This document shows, piece after piece, positions 4,312 to 25,172 of a stretch of DNA of 32,000 bases. Both the position numbers and the translations under genes were made by a program. This stretch comes from Candidatus Saccharimonadota bacterium. GTDB taxonomy: Bacteria; Bacteroidota; Bacteroidia; Cytophagales; Amoebophilaceae. Each line of letters starts with the position of its first letter. Position 1 is the first letter of the stretch. The notes under the pieces are model-generated. The model was given only the letters and a program-made list of their open reading frames with translations, was not told the DNA's origin and made no database searches. The stretch covers positions 870,001 to 902,000 of the forward strand of contig NZ_CP022339.1 of assembly GCF_003351905.1 (NCBI RefSeq), written 5' to 3'.

Positions 4312-4635
4312 ATGCAAAAGAAATATTTTACCATTCAGGAGGTAGCGCGCCATTTTGATGTGGCGCCTTCTTTGATACGTTTTTGGGAAAAAACCTTTAG
4401 TGGCATCCTACAGCCTCATAAGAATAGCAAGGGAGCCAGAAGGTATCAAACAAAAGATATCACTCAGTTGCGTTATATCTATACACTGGTGAAGGAAAAA
4501 GGCTATAGTTTAGCCGGTGCACGCAAAGTAATCCAGAAACATCGTCGTCCGTTTGCCATTACACCCGCAGATGTTGTGCAACGGCTACAGGCGTTACGTG
4601 CTTTCTTAGGTGCGTTAAAAAAAGAGATACATTAG
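4312..4635 (+). CDS. Small MerR-family HTH transcriptional regulator
   Basis: The N-terminal sequence YFTIQEVARHFDVAPSLIRFWEKTF is a typical MerR helix-turn-helix. Only 107 aa, with no obvious effector domain. Confidence 0.75.
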   Translation: MQKKYFTIQEVARHFDVAPSLIRFWEKTFSGILQPHKNSKGARRYQTKDITQLRYIYTLVKEKGYSLAGARKVIQKHRRPFAITPADVVQRLQALRAFLGALKKEIH

Positions 4636-4782: not shown

Positions 4783-5041
4783 GTATCTGTTCAAGTCGCT
4801 GGTGTTTTCCATTACAAGAAGACCGCCCCTGTAAAAAGTCGCGGTGTAGCAAGTGTCATCTTACAGATGATTAGGAAAAACAGTTTCCTTTCAAGCCCCC
4901 AAAGGGGGCGCTTACTGTTTTTCCATCTGTCAGATGACACTTTCAGTGACTTTTTACCGAGGGCTTGATTTTTTGTCCACTTTTTTATTAAGAACAAAGT
5001 GGGATAAAGTTCATTGTTAACCAAATGGTGTGAATAGATAC
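4783..5041 (+). repeat. MITE-like palindromic element, copy A (complete)
   Basis: Starts GTATCTGTTCA and ends TGAATAGATAC (TIR). The interior is a long imperfect palindrome centred on GCCCCCaaaGGGGGC (4895-4909). Near-identical to the copies at 8257, 24154 and 24942. Confidence 0.8.
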
Positions 5042-5276
5042 GCAATAAAATATATTCCTTAAGTTGACACCATTGTGTCGTACGTTTGTATTATAAGCTT
5101 ATTTTACTTAAAGAGCTGGAATAAGGTCGCTTAAGTGCTGGTATTAGATGCCGTTTTACACGTTCCGCCCCCCGCTCTTTTCATCTTAAAAACTGAATAG
5201 TTCGTTGGCCCTTAGAGCCCGTGGTTGCGACGATAGTTTATAAGATGATTCAATTTAGTATAAACTTTCTAATAAT
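5042..5276 (+). ncRNA. Non-coding left end of the IS110 element; candidate bridge (guide) RNA region
   Basis: By position only. IS110-subgroup elements encode a structured recombination guide RNA in the 5' non-coding end. TTGACA at 5064-5069 with TATTAT at 5089-5094 (19-nt spacer) is a weak promoter-like pair. I did not verify a fold. Confidence 0.25.
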
Positions 5277-5568
5277 ATGAAATATATAGGCATTGATATA
5301 TCAAAAAGCAGCTTTGTAGCTGCTTTTCCTAAAGGTGAAGGATTTACTACGTCTAAATATTCAAATGATGTAAATGGGCTTAACCTATTTTTGGCTCAAC
5401 TTGATAGATCCTTGCATCACTGTGTTTTAGAAGCCACTGGCAATTATGGCGCTTTATTAGTAGAGATGCTTATAGCAGCTGAGCTAGCTGTTTCAGTTGT
5501 TAATCCAAGGCAAATCAAACACTTTGCTAAGGCAATGCATCATATAACTAAAACCGATAAGGTAGATG
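5277..5568 (+). CDS. IS110-family transposase, exon 1 (N-terminal DEDD domain)
   Basis: IGIDISK, LEATGNYG, VNPRQIKHFAKA, KTDKVD. Family similarity ends abruptly after KTDKVD, where the GC-rich intron sequence starts. Confidence 0.85.
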
Positions 5569-6094
5569 GCGTGCCACGAAGGCCTCCTTTCTAGTGGGTG
5601 CAAGTCCCACCCTGGCAATAGGCCTGTTGGCCAGGTAGCGAGGAGTGCATCTATAAAGAGTAATTTTTGTAGATGAAGCCACTCGACGACGGCTCTGTAC
5701 AAGGAGCTACGCAAACTGCGGGCCGTACGCAAGGAACCTATATGTAGCGCCGTGAAGGTCTTACCAGAGAAATCTGGGAATTGGAGATGCTGAGCCTCTC
5801 GTCTGGTGGGCGAAAGCTGTAAAGTGACGGAAAGATAACAGGTCAATAACCGTCACTTATCTCCCGGCGTAGCAGGGGCGGCACGTAGGAAAGAAAGGAG
5901 GAGAAACGTGGGAGATCCTGCACGGTCTTTAAGTTCCAAGAGTAAGGAAGGATATAAGGCGCAAGTCGAAGTTCGTTCCGATGCTGTGCAGGAAGTCGGG
6001 AAGATAGTAGTAGTGAAGATGGCAAGGACAACAAAACCTTACCGGAGCGAAGGATCTTCAGTTTCGTCATGTTTTCAAAACAGGGAAAGATACC

Positions 6095-7393
6095 ATGATT
6101 CCGCAAGGTAACCACATGGCACAAAGCGTCCGAGAACTGCAGCGAGAACTTTATCGATCTGCTAAGTCTAATCCTAAACGCAGCTTCTACACCCTTCATG
6201 ACAAAATATATAGATTGGACGTACTGGTCTGTTCATGGAAACAGGTTTGTGCAAATCACGGGGCACCAGGCATAGATGGAATAACAATAGAACAAATCAA
6301 AGAACAAGGGGAAGAAGCGTTTCTTGGACAAGTTCAAAAAGAACTGGAATCAGGAAGCTACCGAAGCAATAAGACAAAGCGCGTGGAAATACCCAAACCG
6401 AAAGGAGGAATAAGAATCTTGGGAGTGCCCACGATTAAGGACCGCTTAGTACAAACTGCAACCCGTCTTGTTATAGAGCCAATTTTTGAAGCAGACTTCC
6501 AAGAATGCTCATTTGGGTTTCGACCTAAACGATCCGCAGTCCATGCAAGTCTATCAATATATAAATGGCTTAATTACGGGCTCACCCAAGTTTTAGATAT
6601 TGATTTGAAGCGATACTTTGACTCAATCCCACACGATAAGCTTATGAAAGTCATTCAAAAGCGAATCAGTGATAGGTATGTTCTAAAGTTAATACAAGCC
6701 TGGCTTCGCTCAGGAGTCCTTAAAGGCGAAGAAGTTGCTACTCGACAAGGATCCCCTCAAGGGTCCCCCATTTCGCCCTTACTTTCTAATATATACCTGA
6801 ATCTGCTAGACACAGTATGGGTCAAGCGGATGACCGAAAGGAATGGGTGGAATGCACAGATTGTCCGCTATGCGGACGATCTCGTGATAGTGTCGAATAA
6901 ACCGGTAGAGAAGATTTTGGGTATTTTATGTGGGTATCTGCAACGCTTGGGCCTTTCGATCAATGAAGAAAAGAGTCGAATGACCACGGCCGAAGAAGGT
7001 TTCAATTTCTTAGGGTATGCCTTTAAAAGGGGATACTCGCCAAGATATCAGAAACCCGTTACCCATATGTATCCTACACCTGATGCAATCAAGCGGATTA
7101 TTAAGAAAGTCACGCAATTGACCTATCGGAACCGGTTGCACGAAAGTGTTGAAACTATTGTTAAAGACTTAAACGCATCCTTACTGGGGTGGACGGAGTA
7201 TTACCGTCACACGGCCAGTTCTAGGAGATTTAGGAAAGTACAAGGGCATGCAAACAGGCGTCTGAGAAGATTTATCATGAAAAAGAAAGGGAGTAGGAAG
7301 AACGGGTATAAGGAACTCCCCGACGAGAAGCTCCACAAAGTGTACAAATTAGTCAATGTAGGAGCTTATCGGGTGCGATACAGATGGACGTAA
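6095..7393 (+). CDS. Group II intron reverse transcriptase/maturase (no endonuclease domain)
   Basis: GAPGIDGITIEQI (RT0), FRPKRSAVHA, DIDLKRYFDSIPH, QGSPISPLLSNIYL, RYADDLVIV (YADD), and X/maturase FNFLGYAF and LLGWTEYYRH. The alternative start MAQSV at 6116 is plausible. Confidence 0.95.
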   Translation: MIPQGNHMAQSVRELQRELYRSAKSNPKRSFYTLHDKIYRLDVLVCSWKQVCANHGAPGIDGITIEQIKEQGEEAFLGQVQKELESGSYRSNKTKRVEIPKPKGGIRILGVPTIKDRLVQTATRLVIEPIFEADFQECSFGFRPKRSAVHASLSIYKWLNYGLTQVLDIDLKRYFDSIPHDKLMKVIQKRISDRYVLKLIQAWLRSGVLKGEEVATRQGSPQGSPISPLLSNIYLNLLDTVWVKRMTERNGWNAQIVRYADDLVIVSNKPVEKILGILCGYLQRLGLSINEEKSRMTTAEEGFNFLGYAFKRGYSPRYQKPVTHMYPTPDAIKRIIKKVTQLTYRNRLHESVETIVKDLNASLLGWTEYYRHTASSRRFRKVQGHANRRLRRFIMKKKGSRKNGYKELPDEKLHKVYKLVNVGAYRVRYRWT

Positions 7394-7416
7394 TGCAGAC
7401 GAAGAAGACGATCCGT

Positions 7417-7449
7417 GCGCCGTATGAGGGAAAACCTCACGTACGGTGC
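7417..7449 (+). ncRNA. Group II intron domain V
   Basis: GCGCCGUAU-GAGG-gaaaa-CCUC-AC-GUACGGUGC. It has the conserved CCGUAU / AC-bulge / GUACGG architecture, with a CGC triad instead of AGC. Confidence 0.8.
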
Positions 7450-7474
7450 GACGGGGGGGTGCTGGAAACGGGAA

Positions 7475-7563
7475 AGAGAGATTGGGTTATTTAGGCACGA
7501 AATCGGAAACGATGGACACGGATAAACCTGGTCCTATACTTCACCGCGCCAGTGCTCTACTCT
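7475..7563 (+). ncRNA. Tentative group II intron domain VI with bulged branch-point A at 7559
   Basis: AGAGAGA (7475-7481) pairs with TCT-A-CTCT (7556-7563), leaving A7559 bulged at position -7 from the predicted 3' splice site. The helix encloses about 74 nt, which is unusually large. Confidence 0.35.
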
Positions 7564-7565
7564 AC

Positions 7566-8245
7566 CTTTTAAACTAGCTCGCTATGGACAGGAAAGGGGA
7601 TTGAAAGCTAATTACAGCTATTATATTACAACAGATCGGCTTAAAAGGCAACAACAAAGAAGAGAAGAGCTGGTAGCTACATTAAGCAATGAAAAGAAAC
7701 GGTTACACCATAGCCAGACTAATATAGATAAAGAAAGCATAGAAAGGCATATCGATTTTTTAGAAAAAGAAATAAAAATTATTGATAAAGCGTTAAATAA
7801 AACCATAACTACTGATAAGGATCTAGACGAAAAGGCTAATATACTAGAAACCATTCCAGGAATCGGGAAATGTTTAGCCACTAAATTAGTCAGTTTTTTA
7901 CCTGAATTAGGTGATAGAAGCTACAGTAGTAATCAACTATCAGCTTTAGTAGGTATAGCACCATATGCGGCTGATAGTGGGAAAAAACAGGGAAAAAGAT
8001 TTATTAGGGGAGGAAGGAAAATACCACGAGATGCACTGTATATGGCTGTATTAGCAGGGAAAAAGTGGTTCCTATATTTAAAAGAATGCTATGATAGATT
8101 AGTAGGTAAATATAAGCCTAAAAAAGTGGCTATCGTAGCATGTATGAGGAAGCTCCTAGAGCTGGCGCATAAGCTTATACAACAAAAAAGAAGCTTCGTC
8201 AAAAGTATCAAAAACGAGTACAAAATGACTAAAAAACTTGCATAG
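7566..8245 (+). CDS. IS110-family transposase, exon 2 (C-terminal domain)
   Basis: The frame is open upstream of the called TTG (7601) and reads FKLARYGQERGLKANY. Also IPGIGKCLATKLVSFLPELGD and LVGIAPYAADSGKKQGKRFIRGGRKIPRDALYMAV, as in the Transposase_20-type domain. Confidence 0.85.
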
Positions 8246-8256
8246 TAAGATAATAG

Positions 8257-8472
8257 CTTTTTTCTTGATAAAAAAGTGGACAAAAAATCAAGCCCTCGGT
8301 AAAAAGTCGCTGAAAGTGCCATCTTCCAGATGGAAAAACAGAAAGTACCCCTTTTGGGGGCTTCAAAGGAAACTGTTTTTCCTAATCATCTGTAAAATGC
8401 CATTTTCTAAACCGCGACTTTTTTCAGGGGCGTTGTTCTTTTAACGCAAAAACCACTGCGCTGAACACATAC
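8257..8472 (-). repeat. MITE-like palindromic element, copy B (inverted relative to A; the IS-proximal end lacks about 40 nt)
   Basis: Matches the reverse complement of copy C almost base for base from CTTTTTTCTTGATAAAAAAGTGGAC through GCGCTGAACACATAC. The similarity begins 12 nt after the transposase stop. Confidence 0.8.
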
Positions 8473-16611: not shown

Positions 16612-18168
16612 ATGTACGAACAATTTGGTAAACAGAGTGTAGTTAAAAAGGTGTGTGGTGTGGTTGTTGTCGTTGCATGTGGCTTATCCTTATGGTTGGC
16701 CAGCCCTTATGCAGGAGAAAAAAGTTTAGTTCCTGTTACCTGTGTGCAGCCGGTTGCTGCCGTAGAACAGCATAAACCATTCGAACAAAGCCTGCCAGCG
16801 CCAGAAGTTAAGCCTTTGGTCACATCCCTGCCCGATTTCACTTATCCAGCTAAAGTGGCTACGCAAGCGGTAGTGCATATAAAGGCATCTCAAAATCCTA
16901 AGATGCTGAAACGAGAATCTTCCCATCCTTTAGAGCAGTTTTTTAAAGAATTTTTTGGACAAGGATTTTTGGTGCCTAAAGAGTATGAGCGGCCAGCCCA
17001 AGAAGCGTCTGGCTCTGGGGTGATCTACACCAGTAATGGCTATATTATTACCAATAACCATGTGGTTGAAGGAGCGGATCAAATAGAAGTTACCTTAAAT
17101 GATAATCGCTCTTATAAAGCAAAATTGGTTGGTGCTGATCCTCTTACTGACTTGGCGCTGTTAAAAATTGATGCAACTAGTCTGCCTGTTTTGGTGCTCG
17201 GCAGTTCGGATAAGTTAGAGGTAGGAGAGTGGGTTTTAGCGGTTGGTAATCCTTTTAACTTGAATTCTACGGTTACCAAGGGTATTGTAAGTGCTAAATC
17301 TAGATCTTTAAGCACCGCTAGTAGTGGGAAATTAGGTATTCAATCTTTTATTCAAACTGATGCAGCCATCAATCCAGGTAATAGTGGTGGTGCGTTGGTT
17401 AATTTGCGTGGGGAGTTGGTAGGTATTAATACAGCTATTTATGCCTCACAATCGCCACAATCGCCTTCATTTATAGGATATGGTTTTGCTATACCCTCTT
17501 CTTTGGTAAAAAAGGTAGCGAATGATTTCATTCAGTATGGTGCGGTGCAGCGGGTATTATTGGGTGTAATCATTCGAGAGGTCAATGCTGAATTGGCTAA
17601 AAAGTTGGCTTTAAAAGTAGTCAGCGGCGTCTATATTGATGAGGTGCAAGCGCATAGTCCTTGTGCAAAGTTATTGCAAAAAGAAGATGTGATTACGCAG
17701 ATCAATGGTCGTCCAATTAATAAAGGCTCAGAGTTACAGGAAATAATAGCTTGTGCTAAACCGGGTGATAAGGTTGTCCTAACATTATACCGTAAAGGTA
17801 AATTAAAAACGGTAGAGGTAGTATTGAAAAAACAGCCTGATGCAGTACAAGTCGTACAAAAAGGAGATACATTGGAAGTAGAAGGGGCGACATTCCAAGA
17901 TCTAGATAAGCAAATAAAAGCCAAGTTGAAGCTTACGGGTGGTGTTTTGGTGCAGGAGGTTGCCAAAGGAAAGTTTCAAGCTGCTGGCCTTAAAAAAGGT
18001 TATATTTTACTTGCTTTTGATAAACAACCTGTTGCAAGTATATCGGACTTAGCTGAAATGGTTCGTCGTGTCACAGAACCTGTTCTGATACAAGTCATAG
18101 AACCTAATAAAGGTACCATTAGTTATTTGGCAGTTGAGTTGGGTGCGGCGCCCCATGCGTCGAAATAA
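16612..18168 (+). CDS. htrA: Periplasmic serine endoprotease of the DegP/DegQ/HtrA family with two PDZ domains
   Basis: Catalytic triad context ITNNHVV, DLALLKI and GNSGGALVN. N-terminal TM/signal and two C-terminal PDZ-like regions. Confidence 0.93.
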   Translation: MYEQFGKQSVVKKVCGVVVVVACGLSLWLASPYAGEKSLVPVTCVQPVAAVEQHKPFEQSLPAPEVKPLVTSLPDFTYPAKVATQAVVHIKASQNPKMLKRESSHPLEQFFKEFFGQGFLVPKEYERPAQEASGSGVIYTSNGYIITNNHVVEGADQIEVTLNDNRSYKAKLVGADPLTDLALLKIDATSLPVLVLGSSDKLEVGEWVLAVGNPFNLNSTVTKGIVSAKSRSLSTASSGKLGIQSFIQTDAAINPGNSGGALVNLRGELVGINTAIYASQSPQSPSFIGYGFAIPSSLVKKVANDFIQYGAVQRVLLGVIIREVNAELAKKLALKVVSGVYIDEVQAHSPCAKLLQKEDVITQINGRPINKGSELQEIIACAKPGDKVVLTLYRKGKLKTVEVVLKKQPDAVQVVQKGDTLEVEGATFQDLDKQIKAKLKLTGGVLVQEVAKGKFQAAGLKKGYILLAFDKQPVASISDLAEMVRRVTEPVLIQVIEPNKGTISYLAVELGAAPHASK

Positions 18169-24068: not shown

Positions 24069-24141
<73 letters not shown>

Positions 24142-24153
24142 CGTCTGATCTGT

Positions 24154-24413
24154 GTATGTGTTTAGAGCCACTGGTTTTCTGCGTCCAAAGAACAACGCCC
24201 CTGTAAAAAGTCGTGGTGTAGAAAGTGGCATTTTACAGATGATTAGGAAAAATAGTTTCCTTTCAAGCCCCTATAGGGGGGCGGTTTCTGTTTTTCCATC
24301 TGTAAGATGACACTTTCAGCGACTTTTTACCGAGGGCTTGATTTTTTGTCCACTTTTTTATCAAGAAAAAAGTGGGATAAAGTTCATCATTAACGAGTAA
24401 TGTGAACAGATAC
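24154..24413 (+). repeat. MITE-like palindromic element, copy C (complete), inserted between tRNA-Gly and tRNA-Leu
   Basis: GTATGTGTTTA...TGAACAGATAC termini, central GCCCCtataGGGGG hairpin and a 10-bp CCACTTTTTT/AAAAAAGTGG hairpin (24350-24375). Confidence 0.85.
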
Positions 24414-24433: not shown

Positions 24434-24516
24434 GCCAGGATGGTGGAATTGGTATACACGCAAGACTTAAAATCTTGTGGCCTTTGGCCATGCGGGTTCG
24501 ACCCCCGCTCCTGGTA
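24434..24516 (+). tRNA. tRNA-Leu (anticodon TAA), type II with a long variable arm
   Basis: Acceptor GCCAGGA/TCCTGGT (G1:U72 wobble), anticodon stem CAAGA/TCTTG with loop CTTAAAA, variable arm GGCC-ttt-GGCC, T arm GCGGG-TTCGACC-CCCGC. Confidence 0.9.
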
Positions 24517-24546
24517 CGCATTAAAGCATTGTTTCTGGTTGTATCG

Positions 24547-24876
24547 ATGGGTTCTATTTCCTTTTTAGATGTAGTGGCATGTATTGGTTCATCTACAGCT
24601 GTGCTCTCCCTACTTCCGCAGATTATACAGTCCTATAGAACAAAATCTGTTCATGACGTTTCCATGTTGATGCTCTTGAACCTGACGGTTTCTTCCATTA
24701 GCTGGACCCTTTATGGCGCAATGACCGCTGATAAGCCATTATGCTTAACCAATGTATTGCTTACCATTGGTTCTTTGATTATGGTAGCGCTCAAACGCAA
24801 ATACCGTGCAACGGAACGACCAAAACCCATACAGCCAGCTGACCACCGTAAAAAACGGAAAAAACGCCTATTGTAA
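24547..24876 (+). CDS. SemiSWEET / PQ-loop family small membrane transporter
   Basis: Three predicted TM helices and the PQ motif LLPQIIQSYRTKSVHDVS, plus a basic C-terminal tail. The start is set at the ATG at 24547 because the upstream part of the called ORF overlaps tRNA-Leu. Confidence 0.7.
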   Translation: MGSISFLDVVACIGSSTAVLSLLPQIIQSYRTKSVHDVSMLMLLNLTVSSISWTLYGAMTADKPLCLTNVLLTIGSLIMVALKRKYRATERPKPIQPADHRKKRKKRLL

Positions 24877-24941: not shown

Positions 24942-25172
24942 GTATCTGTTCAACTCACTGGGGGGGGGGGATTAAAAGCAAACCGCCCCTGTAAAAAGTC
25001 GTGGTGCAGCAAGTGGCATTTTACAGATGATTAGGAAAAACAGTTTCCTTTAAAGCCCACGTAGTGGGCGCTTTCTGTTGTTCCATCTGCCAGATGGCAC
25101 TTGCAACGACTTTTTACCGAGGGCTTGATTTTTTGCTTACTTTTTTATCAAGAAAAAAGTAAAAATAAAATT
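24942..25172 (+). repeat. MITE-like palindromic element, copy D (right terminus decayed; carries a G11 tract)
   Basis: GTATCTGTTCAACTCACTG followed by G x11 (24960-24970), then the conserved CCCCTGTAAAAAGTCG core. Compensated stems GCCCAC/GTGGGC (25055-25069) and TTACTTTTTT/AAAAAAGTAA (25137-25162). Confidence 0.75.

Follow-up and report, generated by a model that had tools for sequence, protein, structure and literature searches.

The Correia elements of Neisseria (Correia repeat enclosed elements, CREE, or Neisseria miniature insertion sequences, NEMIS) are short MITEs (miniature inverted-repeat transposable elements) of 105–155 bp, with 26-bp terminal inverted repeats (TIRs) and a TA duplication of the target. 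They are mostly intergenic, are co-transcribed with their neighbors, fold into hairpins and have been reported as terminators, promoters or RNase III targets; we know of no parent insertion sequence (IS) for them. Repetitive extragenic palindromes and bacterial interspersed mosaic elements (REP/BIME), enterobacterial repetitive intergenic consensus sequences (ERIC) and Rickettsia palindromic elements (RPE) are palindromic repeats, dispersed in their genomes, which adopt a fold as RNA. Those of the REP and ERIC kinds are found at the 3′ ends of genes and can stabilize mRNA or stop transcription; the 20–40-nt units of REP/BIME are moved by REP-associated tyrosine transposases (RAYT), without terminal repeats or target-site duplications (TSDs), and RPE are often inserted in frame within genes. 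Here, a family of palindromic elements is described from a stretch of 32,000 nt (contig NZ_CP022339.1, positions 870,001–902,000), the whole of which is referred to as the window and the DNA of which belongs to Cardinium, an endosymbiont of insects and mites.

Cardinium is already known to carry MITEs. MITECca01, published in 2022 (PMC9769881), measures ~240 bp, has been reported only from cOegib and derives from ISCca4 of the IS982 family, with the motif AGMTTGTW after its left repeat; together with MITECca02, also derived from IS982, it was reported as unique to cOegib (PMC9769881). The family in the window resembles MITECca01 in being a non-coding, multicopy, IS-derived MITE of similar size in the same genus, and MITECca01 likewise lies mostly between genes or inside other mobile elements (PMC9769881). 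By contrast, when the two are compared by description, the window family has IS4-type ends and lacks AGMTTGTW after its left terminus. No description of it was found in the searchable literature, including the other Cardinium genome papers and a 2025 review. Next to MITECca01 and MITECca02, which are the only Cardinium MITEs described in that literature, it constitutes a second Cardinium MITE family, which is older and is present in several genomes. It differs from the Correia elements in its length (258 bp), its 8-bp TSD, its IS4-type ends and a distinct internal module shaped like a terminator, and from REP/BIME and RPE in having both TIRs and TSDs, all copies seen being intergenic and non-coding. 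By analogy, it may resemble Correia, ERIC and REP in function; it is a member of none of them, since its ends and TSD differ.

Five copies and one left-end fragment are present in the window. Repeat detection and an nhmmer profile built from the copies recovered every position listed in the original prediction, namely copy A (4783–5041, + strand), copy B (8257–8472, −), copy C (24154–24413, +), copy D (24942–25172, +) and the old, divergent copy E (27553–27780, −). We hold, with moderate confidence, that these are copies of an IS4-derived MITE whose terminator-shaped passenger would play a part in the RNA of the host. The mobile nature of the family is the firmest component of this explanation, as it is very probably a true, non-autonomous MITE of Cardinium.

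The distribution of the repeat reaches far beyond the window. When one genome per species was scanned with a 20-mer taken from the conserved right arm, matches were obtained at 14 loci in Cardinium sp. TP (GCA_025215055.1), two in cBcalN2 and two in the Cardinium of Nabis limbatus, with a single chance match in Ruegeria and no locus in cOegib. The nhmmer profile recorded 36 copies or fragments in the window and the sampled loci L001–L019, and at least 26 copies or fragments lie in the sampled TP loci. The copies are placed on at least 11 contigs of TP as well as in other genomes; relatives occur in four Cardinium genomes besides TP and on one Cardinium plasmid, and the element is found in at least five Cardinium genomes other than cOegib. 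The MutS protein of the window shares 96% identity with that of a Cardinium metagenome-assembled genome (GCA_036541165.1, locus L020, hereafter the sister strain) and 81% with that of the Cardinium of Dermatophagoides farinae (locus L022, hereafter the D. farinae Cardinium). The D. farinae Cardinium plasmid CP101109 carries a full copy with both termini, which is the only relative in the plasmid collection, where no IS was found. Pairwise identity among the copies ranges from 76% to 98% (median 88%). The window and the TP loci share no gene and have nothing in common beyond the repeats. From the matches in L020, L022, the plasmid, TP, cBcalN2 and the Nabis loci, it is therefore concluded that the repeat is genome-wide and genus-wide and not a local duplication.

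Fifteen copies span the whole model between unrelated flanks. They measure 256–261 bp, which is below the ~500-bp limit for MITEs, with the exception of the copy in L015, which has a degraded right end and extends the range down to 250 bp. The termini GTATCTGTTCA ... TGAACAGATAC are found in these 15 copies; the variants that had been predicted, GTATCTGTTCA or GTATGTGTTTA at the left end and TGAACAGATAC or TGAATAGATAC at the right, were confirmed. The TIRs are 11–22 bp long, with the outer consensus GTATSTGTTCA-SGNNNNTGG and an imperfect extension to ~22 bp. Within the window, the terminal 11-mer motif occurs 12 times, as compared with 4.96 ± 2.16 times in shuffled sequence, and none of 100 shuffles reached 12. 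The predicted non-coding, MITE-like character is borne out by the dispersal of the copies, by the lack among them of any open reading frame (ORF) conserved in strand or frame (the longest ORFs differ) and by the lack of a Pfam match to the ORFs of the element. A coding reading based on the 77-aa antisense ORFs of copies A and B was rejected, these ORFs not being conserved.

The TSDs that the original prediction proposed to look for are 8 bp long and were found around four Cardinium elements (three exact and one agreeing at 7/8 positions): TCCTATTC around L017:142–399, the youngest copy, which is 97.7% identical to its nearest relative in L011; CCCCACGG/TCCCACGG flanking the copy in L020 that is orthologous to copy C; GGGAAATA around a composite element at L001:3281–3767; and AAAAAATA around L004:1551–1899. 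In the window, copy C stands 11 nt from the tRNA-Gly gene (24143–24153) versus 81 nt in the sister strain (L020:5978–6058), a deletion of ~70 nt having removed its left TSD. There is also an insertion polymorphism, in which a full copy (L020:9494–9753) lies inside the A/T hairpin of copy E in the sister strain, flanked by the low-complexity repeat TAAAAAAN, while the corresponding window site at ~27585 is uninterrupted. In L020, solo termini and deletion derivatives make up a mosaic at site D, and tandem solo left or right termini are also seen in L004, L008 and L013. In L015:924–1173, the central palindrome is inverted relative to the termini (the profile calls the minus strand and the covariance model the plus strand, 130.8 vs 85.2 bits), which shows that the arms recombine. 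One copy harbors in its central GC loop a different insert of ~240 bp (L002:7090–7330), with 11-bp TIRs CTTACTATTAC / GTAATAGTAAG and the 9-bp duplication CCCAAAGGG; it seems to represent another MITE family of Cardinium sp. TP, with no relation to the present one.

The ends of the MITE probably derive from an IS4-family lineage, as judged from the terminal repeats. Several copies (in L001, L015, L005 and L006) sit in a composite of ~490 bp ending in a longer repeat, GTATCTGTTCA-CGCAATRGCGTCAACTTAAGG, and terminate in GTATCTGTTCACGCAATAGCGTCAACTTAAGG. A metagenome scan with this longer terminus gave 29 loci, mostly GTA[AT][CG]TGTTCA..CAATGGCGTCAACTTAAG at the edges of MITE-sized units; the contigs (L032–L060, 32–47% G+C) carry the 32-bp terminus, and the interiors of most units are unrelated. 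An autonomous IS with the same termini, which had been suggested as a search target, was met on one of these metagenome contigs only. It is a 1410-bp element (L048:58–1467) with the inverted repeats GTAACTGTTCACGCAATGGCGTCAACTTAAGG and a 421-aa transposase, which matches the NCBIfam IS4 family NF033592 with 186 bits (cut-off 115) as well as Pfam DDE_Tnp_1. The outer 11–22 bp of the MITE reproduce the outer part of the 32-bp IS4-family inverted repeats, of which the 258-bp form retains ~20 bp and the composite form ~32 bp. MITE-sized metagenome relatives show 8-bp TSDs as well (TTGATGGC in L037 and GGATTTTT in L051). The family is thus like the L048 element in its terminal sequence and in belonging to a lineage with 8-bp TSDs, and unlike it in having no transposase. 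The closest plasmid-borne relatives of the transposase are at most 30% identical, and the published IS inventory lists one IS4-family element, ISCca13, in cOegib (OW441264) only. The consensus of the terminus can be written GTAWSTGTTCA...GGCGTCAACTTAAGG. As the autonomous IS is known from the metagenome only, we infer mobilization in trans in the window genome: an IS4-family DDE transposase would act on the MITE ends.

Other candidate parents and mobilizers were rejected, including Cardinium IS families with 8-bp duplications, namely IS256 and IS6. A terminus-like 20-mer is located upstream of an IS256 fragment in L022, but the true left end of that element (GGGTCTGTCTTT..., four loci) is unrelated; the IS256-type left end of Cardinium reads GGGTCTGTCTTTTTAAGTG.... 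The IS6-type ISCca2 makes an 8-bp duplication, but its repeats (GGTTCTGTCGCAT...) do not match. The repeats of IS256 and ISCca2 have in common with the MITE termini only a short TCTGT core. The IS110-family element of the window is without inverted repeats and is inserted beside or into the repeats. The large repeated ORFs beside several copies, considered as transposases, proved to be fusion proteins instead. They are paralogues of ~1150 aa, in which a sodium:solute symporter domain (SSF) is fused to HD_4 (RelA/SpoT-like). Ten such ORFs are present in the sampled loci, the elements often lying just 3′ of them (L017:568–4023, L017:4331–7954, L013:4502–7876, further ones in L015, L008 and L001, and 14081–17548 of plasmid CP101109).

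The passenger between the ends consists of a hairpin of ~140 nt, the core of which is formed by an A-tract, a 6-bp GC-rich hairpin and a T-tract, and of a second, 10-bp A/T hairpin. In order, there are an A-rich stretch, a ~60-bp stem, the run TTGATTTTTTG and the hairpin CCACTTTTTT-ATCAAG-AAAAAAGTGG, with the A-rich stretch and the T-run flanking the long hairpin on either side; the middle of the stem reads GGAAAAACAG, the hairpin GCCCCC-AAA-GGGGGC and CTGTTTTTCC. In copy C, the long imperfect palindrome occupies 24197–24336 (+ strand) and is recognized by covariance model R1 with 158.7 bits, besides its folds and covariation. The central GC hairpin (24267–24282) with its T-rich tail (24267–24297, +) is terminator-like in the sense orientation according to a terminator-pattern scan. 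The A/T-rich hairpin follows at 24350–24375 (+), preceded by the nearly invariant T-run TTGATTTTTTGT; compensatory variants of it are seen in copies D and E and in L003, L004div and L020. The RNA of copy C folds with −98.7 kcal/mol (z = −8.7) and the antisense RNA with −82 kcal/mol; the DNA fold has −54 kcal/mol (z = −8.9). In Rfam, the best E-value of the element was 0.36, far below the gathering threshold, the window matches being tRNAs and group II intron domains. Covariance model R1 found no palindrome module in the metagenome loci, and because it is absent from these relatives, the module is a Cardinium-specific passenger and not a part derived from the IS.

The original prediction held that the differences between copies are compensatory and that the fold itself is maintained. 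The stems it cited are found in the sequence: the central stem is GCCCCC/GGGGGC in copy A (4895–4909) versus GCCCAC/GTGGGC in copy D (25055–25069), and the right-arm stem is CCAC.../...GTGG in copy C (24350–24375), TTAC.../...GTAA in copy D (25137–25162) and CTAT.../...ATAG in copy E (27560–27585). The old copies D and E hold most of the compensatory changes, and young copies differ mostly on one side of the stem. Statistical support for the maintenance of the fold comes with the inclusion of divergent copies in the alignment. When a plain MAFFT alignment mixing divergent and partial copies was given to RNAalifold, the long stem was missed, and a covariance-model alignment was used instead. 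In alignment A8, composed of the 27 best covariance-model matches and 48 pairs, 96.6% of the cells pair, as compared with 43–53% in controls with slid partners. Both sides have changed in 17 of the 48 pairs (4.7 ± 1.8 when shuffled) and in 41 cells (5.6 ± 2.2 when shuffled), and none of 500 shuffles reaches the observed values, so that significance was not lost when many copies were aligned. With 32 best-strand rows, 28 of the 48 pairs and 90 cells are involved, against 19.8 ± 3.7 cells in shuffles. The divergent arms of the Nabis, cBcalN2 and D. farinae loci and of the old TP copies are very different in sequence and still complementary. Covariation thus supports the maintenance of the fold across Cardinium lineages.

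Conservation is unevenly distributed along the element. In alignment A8, the helix of A-tract and T-tract shows no covariation and is conserved in sequence, whereas the adjacent helices covary. The diversity of 16 young copies amounts to 0.01 in the T-run, 0.05–0.08 in paired positions, 0.18 in unpaired positions and 0.15–0.26 in the termini. There are 58 G.U cells on the sense strand, as compared with 29 A.C cells, an excess to which strand choice by model score or a transcription-linked mutation bias may contribute.

All window copies are intergenic, as had been predicted, and mostly at gene 3′ ends: an upstream ORF can be called for 30 copies, and for 22 of them, all five in the window among these, it is co-oriented. 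The transposase named beside copy B, however, is one half, the C-terminal one, of a gene of the IS110 family that a group II intron has split. The contexts comprise 10 convergent, eight tandem-sense, four tandem-antisense and three divergent cases. In copies A, B, C and D, the terminator-pattern scan flagged the central hairpin with its T-tail as a match to the pattern in the sense orientation. The outer palindrome is followed by TTGATTTTTTG, and U-rich sequence stands 3′ of the outer hairpin on both strands. In the D. farinae Cardinium, a hairpin remnant is retained at site C, in the tRNA-Gly/tRNA-Leu spacer, a copy is placed downstream of SemiSWEET at site D, and another lies between the genes of AhpC and DUF3127 at site E. 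Either these three sites have been occupied since before the split of the lineages, or old copies attract new ones, as shown by the insertion into the hairpin of copy E.

Under the explanation that we favor, the passenger would act on RNA read in from the neighboring gene: the hairpin would stop transcription and/or protect the 3′ end of the transcript, with the inner terminator acting in the sense direction. Such a role would account for the conservation of the fold, of the A/T tracts and of the T-run after insertion, while the transposition ends decay, and for the persistence of old, immobile copies at identical intergenic sites of distant Cardinium lineages. A function of the hairpin at the level of host RNA is, on the evidence of the sequences, a possibility to which we give slightly less than an even chance; a terminator or 3′-end function would be a plausible form of it, and the role as terminator or RNA-stability element that the original prediction put forward would suit both the anatomy of the passenger and its contexts. 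More tentative, and in our view rather unlikely, is the specific proposal that the passenger is a portable bidirectional terminator or 3′-end hairpin, spread genus-wide by the IS4-derived MITE. If it were true, selection would have preserved the copies behind genes over tens of millions of years following the loss of their ends, and the terminators of a shrinking genome would be supplied and renewed by transposition, including replacement through insertion into old hairpins.

Several observations weigh against this explanation. The alignment was fitted to the structure, the shuffles ignore relatedness, and the best-strand choice favors both the modeled structure and G.U pairs; moreover, a DNA palindrome can covary without selection, through template switching or arm-to-arm conversion. 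In the young family, one-sided changes amount to ~107 cells and compensated ones to ~8, the latter mainly in copy D. The orthologous copies C of the sister strains are 89.8% identical and show no obvious compensation; constraint is not visible between these strains. No IS4-family transposase was found by tblastn in ~260 kb of Cardinium loci, and the only autonomous element with these ends lies on a metagenome contig. Most copies, chiefly the older ones, are without a recognizable TSD; a scan beside the 11-bp termini gave one clear case, further ones being seen after composite and outer elements had been recognized and the sister strain compared. The tandem orientations (8 to 4) are not significantly biased, and any insertion that is tolerated would likewise be in excess at gene 3′ ends. 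No promoter of its own was identified for tRNA-Leu, which a strong terminator in copy C would require, and intrinsic terminators are typically far shorter than a 60-bp stem.

The chief competing explanation is a MITE that is purely selfish and has no function for the host, in which the hairpin is a by-product of origin or movement, symmetry is kept at the DNA level by template switching or arm conversion, and the 3′-end location marks where insertions are tolerated. It would account for the mostly one-sided decay of young copies, for the 10% difference without compensation between the orthologous copies C, for the arm recombination evident in L015, for sites remodeled between sister strains with nested and tandem termini, and for the lack of a significant tandem bias. 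We nevertheless consider it rather doubtful, given that stems and T-run are less diverse (0.01–0.08) than the termini (0.15–0.26) in the young family, that the A-/T-tract helix is conserved while others covary, a pattern which arm correction alone does not predict, that G.U exceeds A.C about 2:1 on one strand, and that immobile old copies were kept at three orthologous sites in a shrinking genome. A structured RNA with another role (an RNase III or RNase E site, a stability element of the REP/ERIC kind, or a small RNA precursor with its own promoter) seems improbable. The stronger sense than antisense fold, the covariation and the G.U excess would suit it, and so would copy C in a tRNA cluster, where processing is compatible with tRNA-Leu expression, unlike termination. 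On the other hand, there is no match to an Rfam family, sigma-70-type promoter matches are at the level of shuffles (in a scan that does not model Bacteroidota promoters), and the layout of A-tract, GC hairpin and T-tract is most simply that of a terminator.

The remaining alternatives can be dismissed. Movement driven by the hairpin, as in REP/RAYT or IS200/IS605-type elements (palindrome-associated transposable elements, PATE), with a Y1 (HUH) transposase acting on subterminal hairpins, is hardly credible. The strong palindrome, the many copies without a visible TSD and the insertion into another copy's hairpin would fit it, but TIRs and 8-bp TSDs are present, and to our knowledge neither occurs in those families; besides, the termini match an IS4-family DDE element, and no Y1 transposase was detected among the neighboring proteins scanned with Pfam. 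Even less chance is left to a local segmental duplication or to fragments of a coding IS or gene, two of the three outcomes that would have refuted the prediction, none of which was observed. Five copies do lie within 23 kb of the window, but their flanks are unrelated, and the family is dispersed over at least 11 TP contigs and other genomes; no reading frame is conserved, and there is no match to a protein family. The hairpin-transposon, coding and local-duplication readings are excluded.

An IS4-derived MITE with a structured passenger offers a testable case of domestication, since the passenger covaries, persists at orthologous sites and shows stronger conservation than the ends used in transposition. 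Cardinium annotation is hampered by repeats, and the family accounts for intergenic oddities such as the long tRNA-Gly/tRNA-Leu spacer and the sites at which one sister strain is unlike the other. It could further serve as a marker to type strains and to date IS4 activity. The 29 metagenome contigs with the terminal repeat point to a widespread IS4 lineage which readily spawns MITEs; it is this link, along with the evidence that a structured passenger has been retained over a long time, that makes the family of some interest.

Concerning the individual copies, repeat detection in the window grouped 4811–5000, 24184–24373 and 24971–25160 as a direct-repeat family of 190 nt, with an inverted partner at 8257–8451 and weaker matches at 27565–27622. 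Copy A is full length (259 bp; nhmmer model positions 1–261, score 307), with the termini GTATCTGTTCA / TGAATAGATAC, and has a MerR-family gene upstream (4312–4635, +; by Pfam). It is followed at 5043–5074 (+) by a 32-nt fragment of the "X-right" module, 97% identical to L001:3721–3752; in composite copies, the element is flanked by the longer IS4-type terminus, of which this module forms the inner part. The fragment is cut by the left end of an IS110-family element, an end common to L024 and L025.

Copy B (nhmmer positions 1–219) keeps the left terminus, the palindrome and part of the A/T hairpin; the right terminus is gone, and the break abuts the right end of the IS110. Upstream of it lies bamA (8626–11268, −; Pfam POTRA/Omp85). 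The partial copy predicted in tandem at 8473–8539 (−) is present as a direct repeat, although only ~53 nt of it (8487–8539; nhmmer positions 1–55 at 8539–8487) are left-terminus sequence, the other 14 nt being right-arm sequence. The IS110-family element itself occupies 5078–8256. Its transposase gene is split into 5277–5594 (DEDD_Tnp_IS110) and 7601–8245 (Transposase_20) by a group II intron at 5592–7565, with a reverse transcriptase (RT)/maturase ORF at 6095–7393. Its left end, GTCGTACGTTTGTATTATAAG, is inserted into the IS4-type terminus module beside copy A and likewise abuts other mobile-element ends in L024 and L025, while its right end is contiguous with copy B, at the A/T hairpin.

Copy C is full length (260 bp; nhmmer positions 1–261, score 309), with the left TIR GTATGTGTTTA at 24154–24164 and the right TIR TGAACAGATAC at 24403–24413 (both +). 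It lies in the spacer between tRNA-Gly(GCC) (24069–24142) and tRNA-Leu(TAA) (24434–24517), so that mutS and tRNA-Gly are upstream and tRNA-Leu is downstream. Copy D is older and retains the left terminus only (nhmmer positions 1–221, at 24942–25161). It is ~80% identical to the young family, has several compensated stem changes and is flanked by the convergent SemiSWEET (+) and tlc (−) genes. At 24961–24971, the T-run of all other copies is replaced by 11 consecutive G, possibly a slippage-prone tract or an assembly artefact. The listed SemiSWEET ORF (24475–24876) begins with a TTG inside tRNA-Leu. As the sister strain's gene is called shorter, at 128 aa, the true start probably lies near 24490.

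Copy E (nhmmer 27737–27561; R1 27600–27727) is nearly symmetrical, with hairpin modules on both sides, which renders its orientation call ambiguous. It is flanked by the genes of DUF3127 (−) and AhpC (−), and orthologous copies are located in L020 and L022. Elsewhere in the window, at 14127–14222, the ORF 13380–14396 (−) contains a tandem duplication of a 48-bp unit (85% identical).

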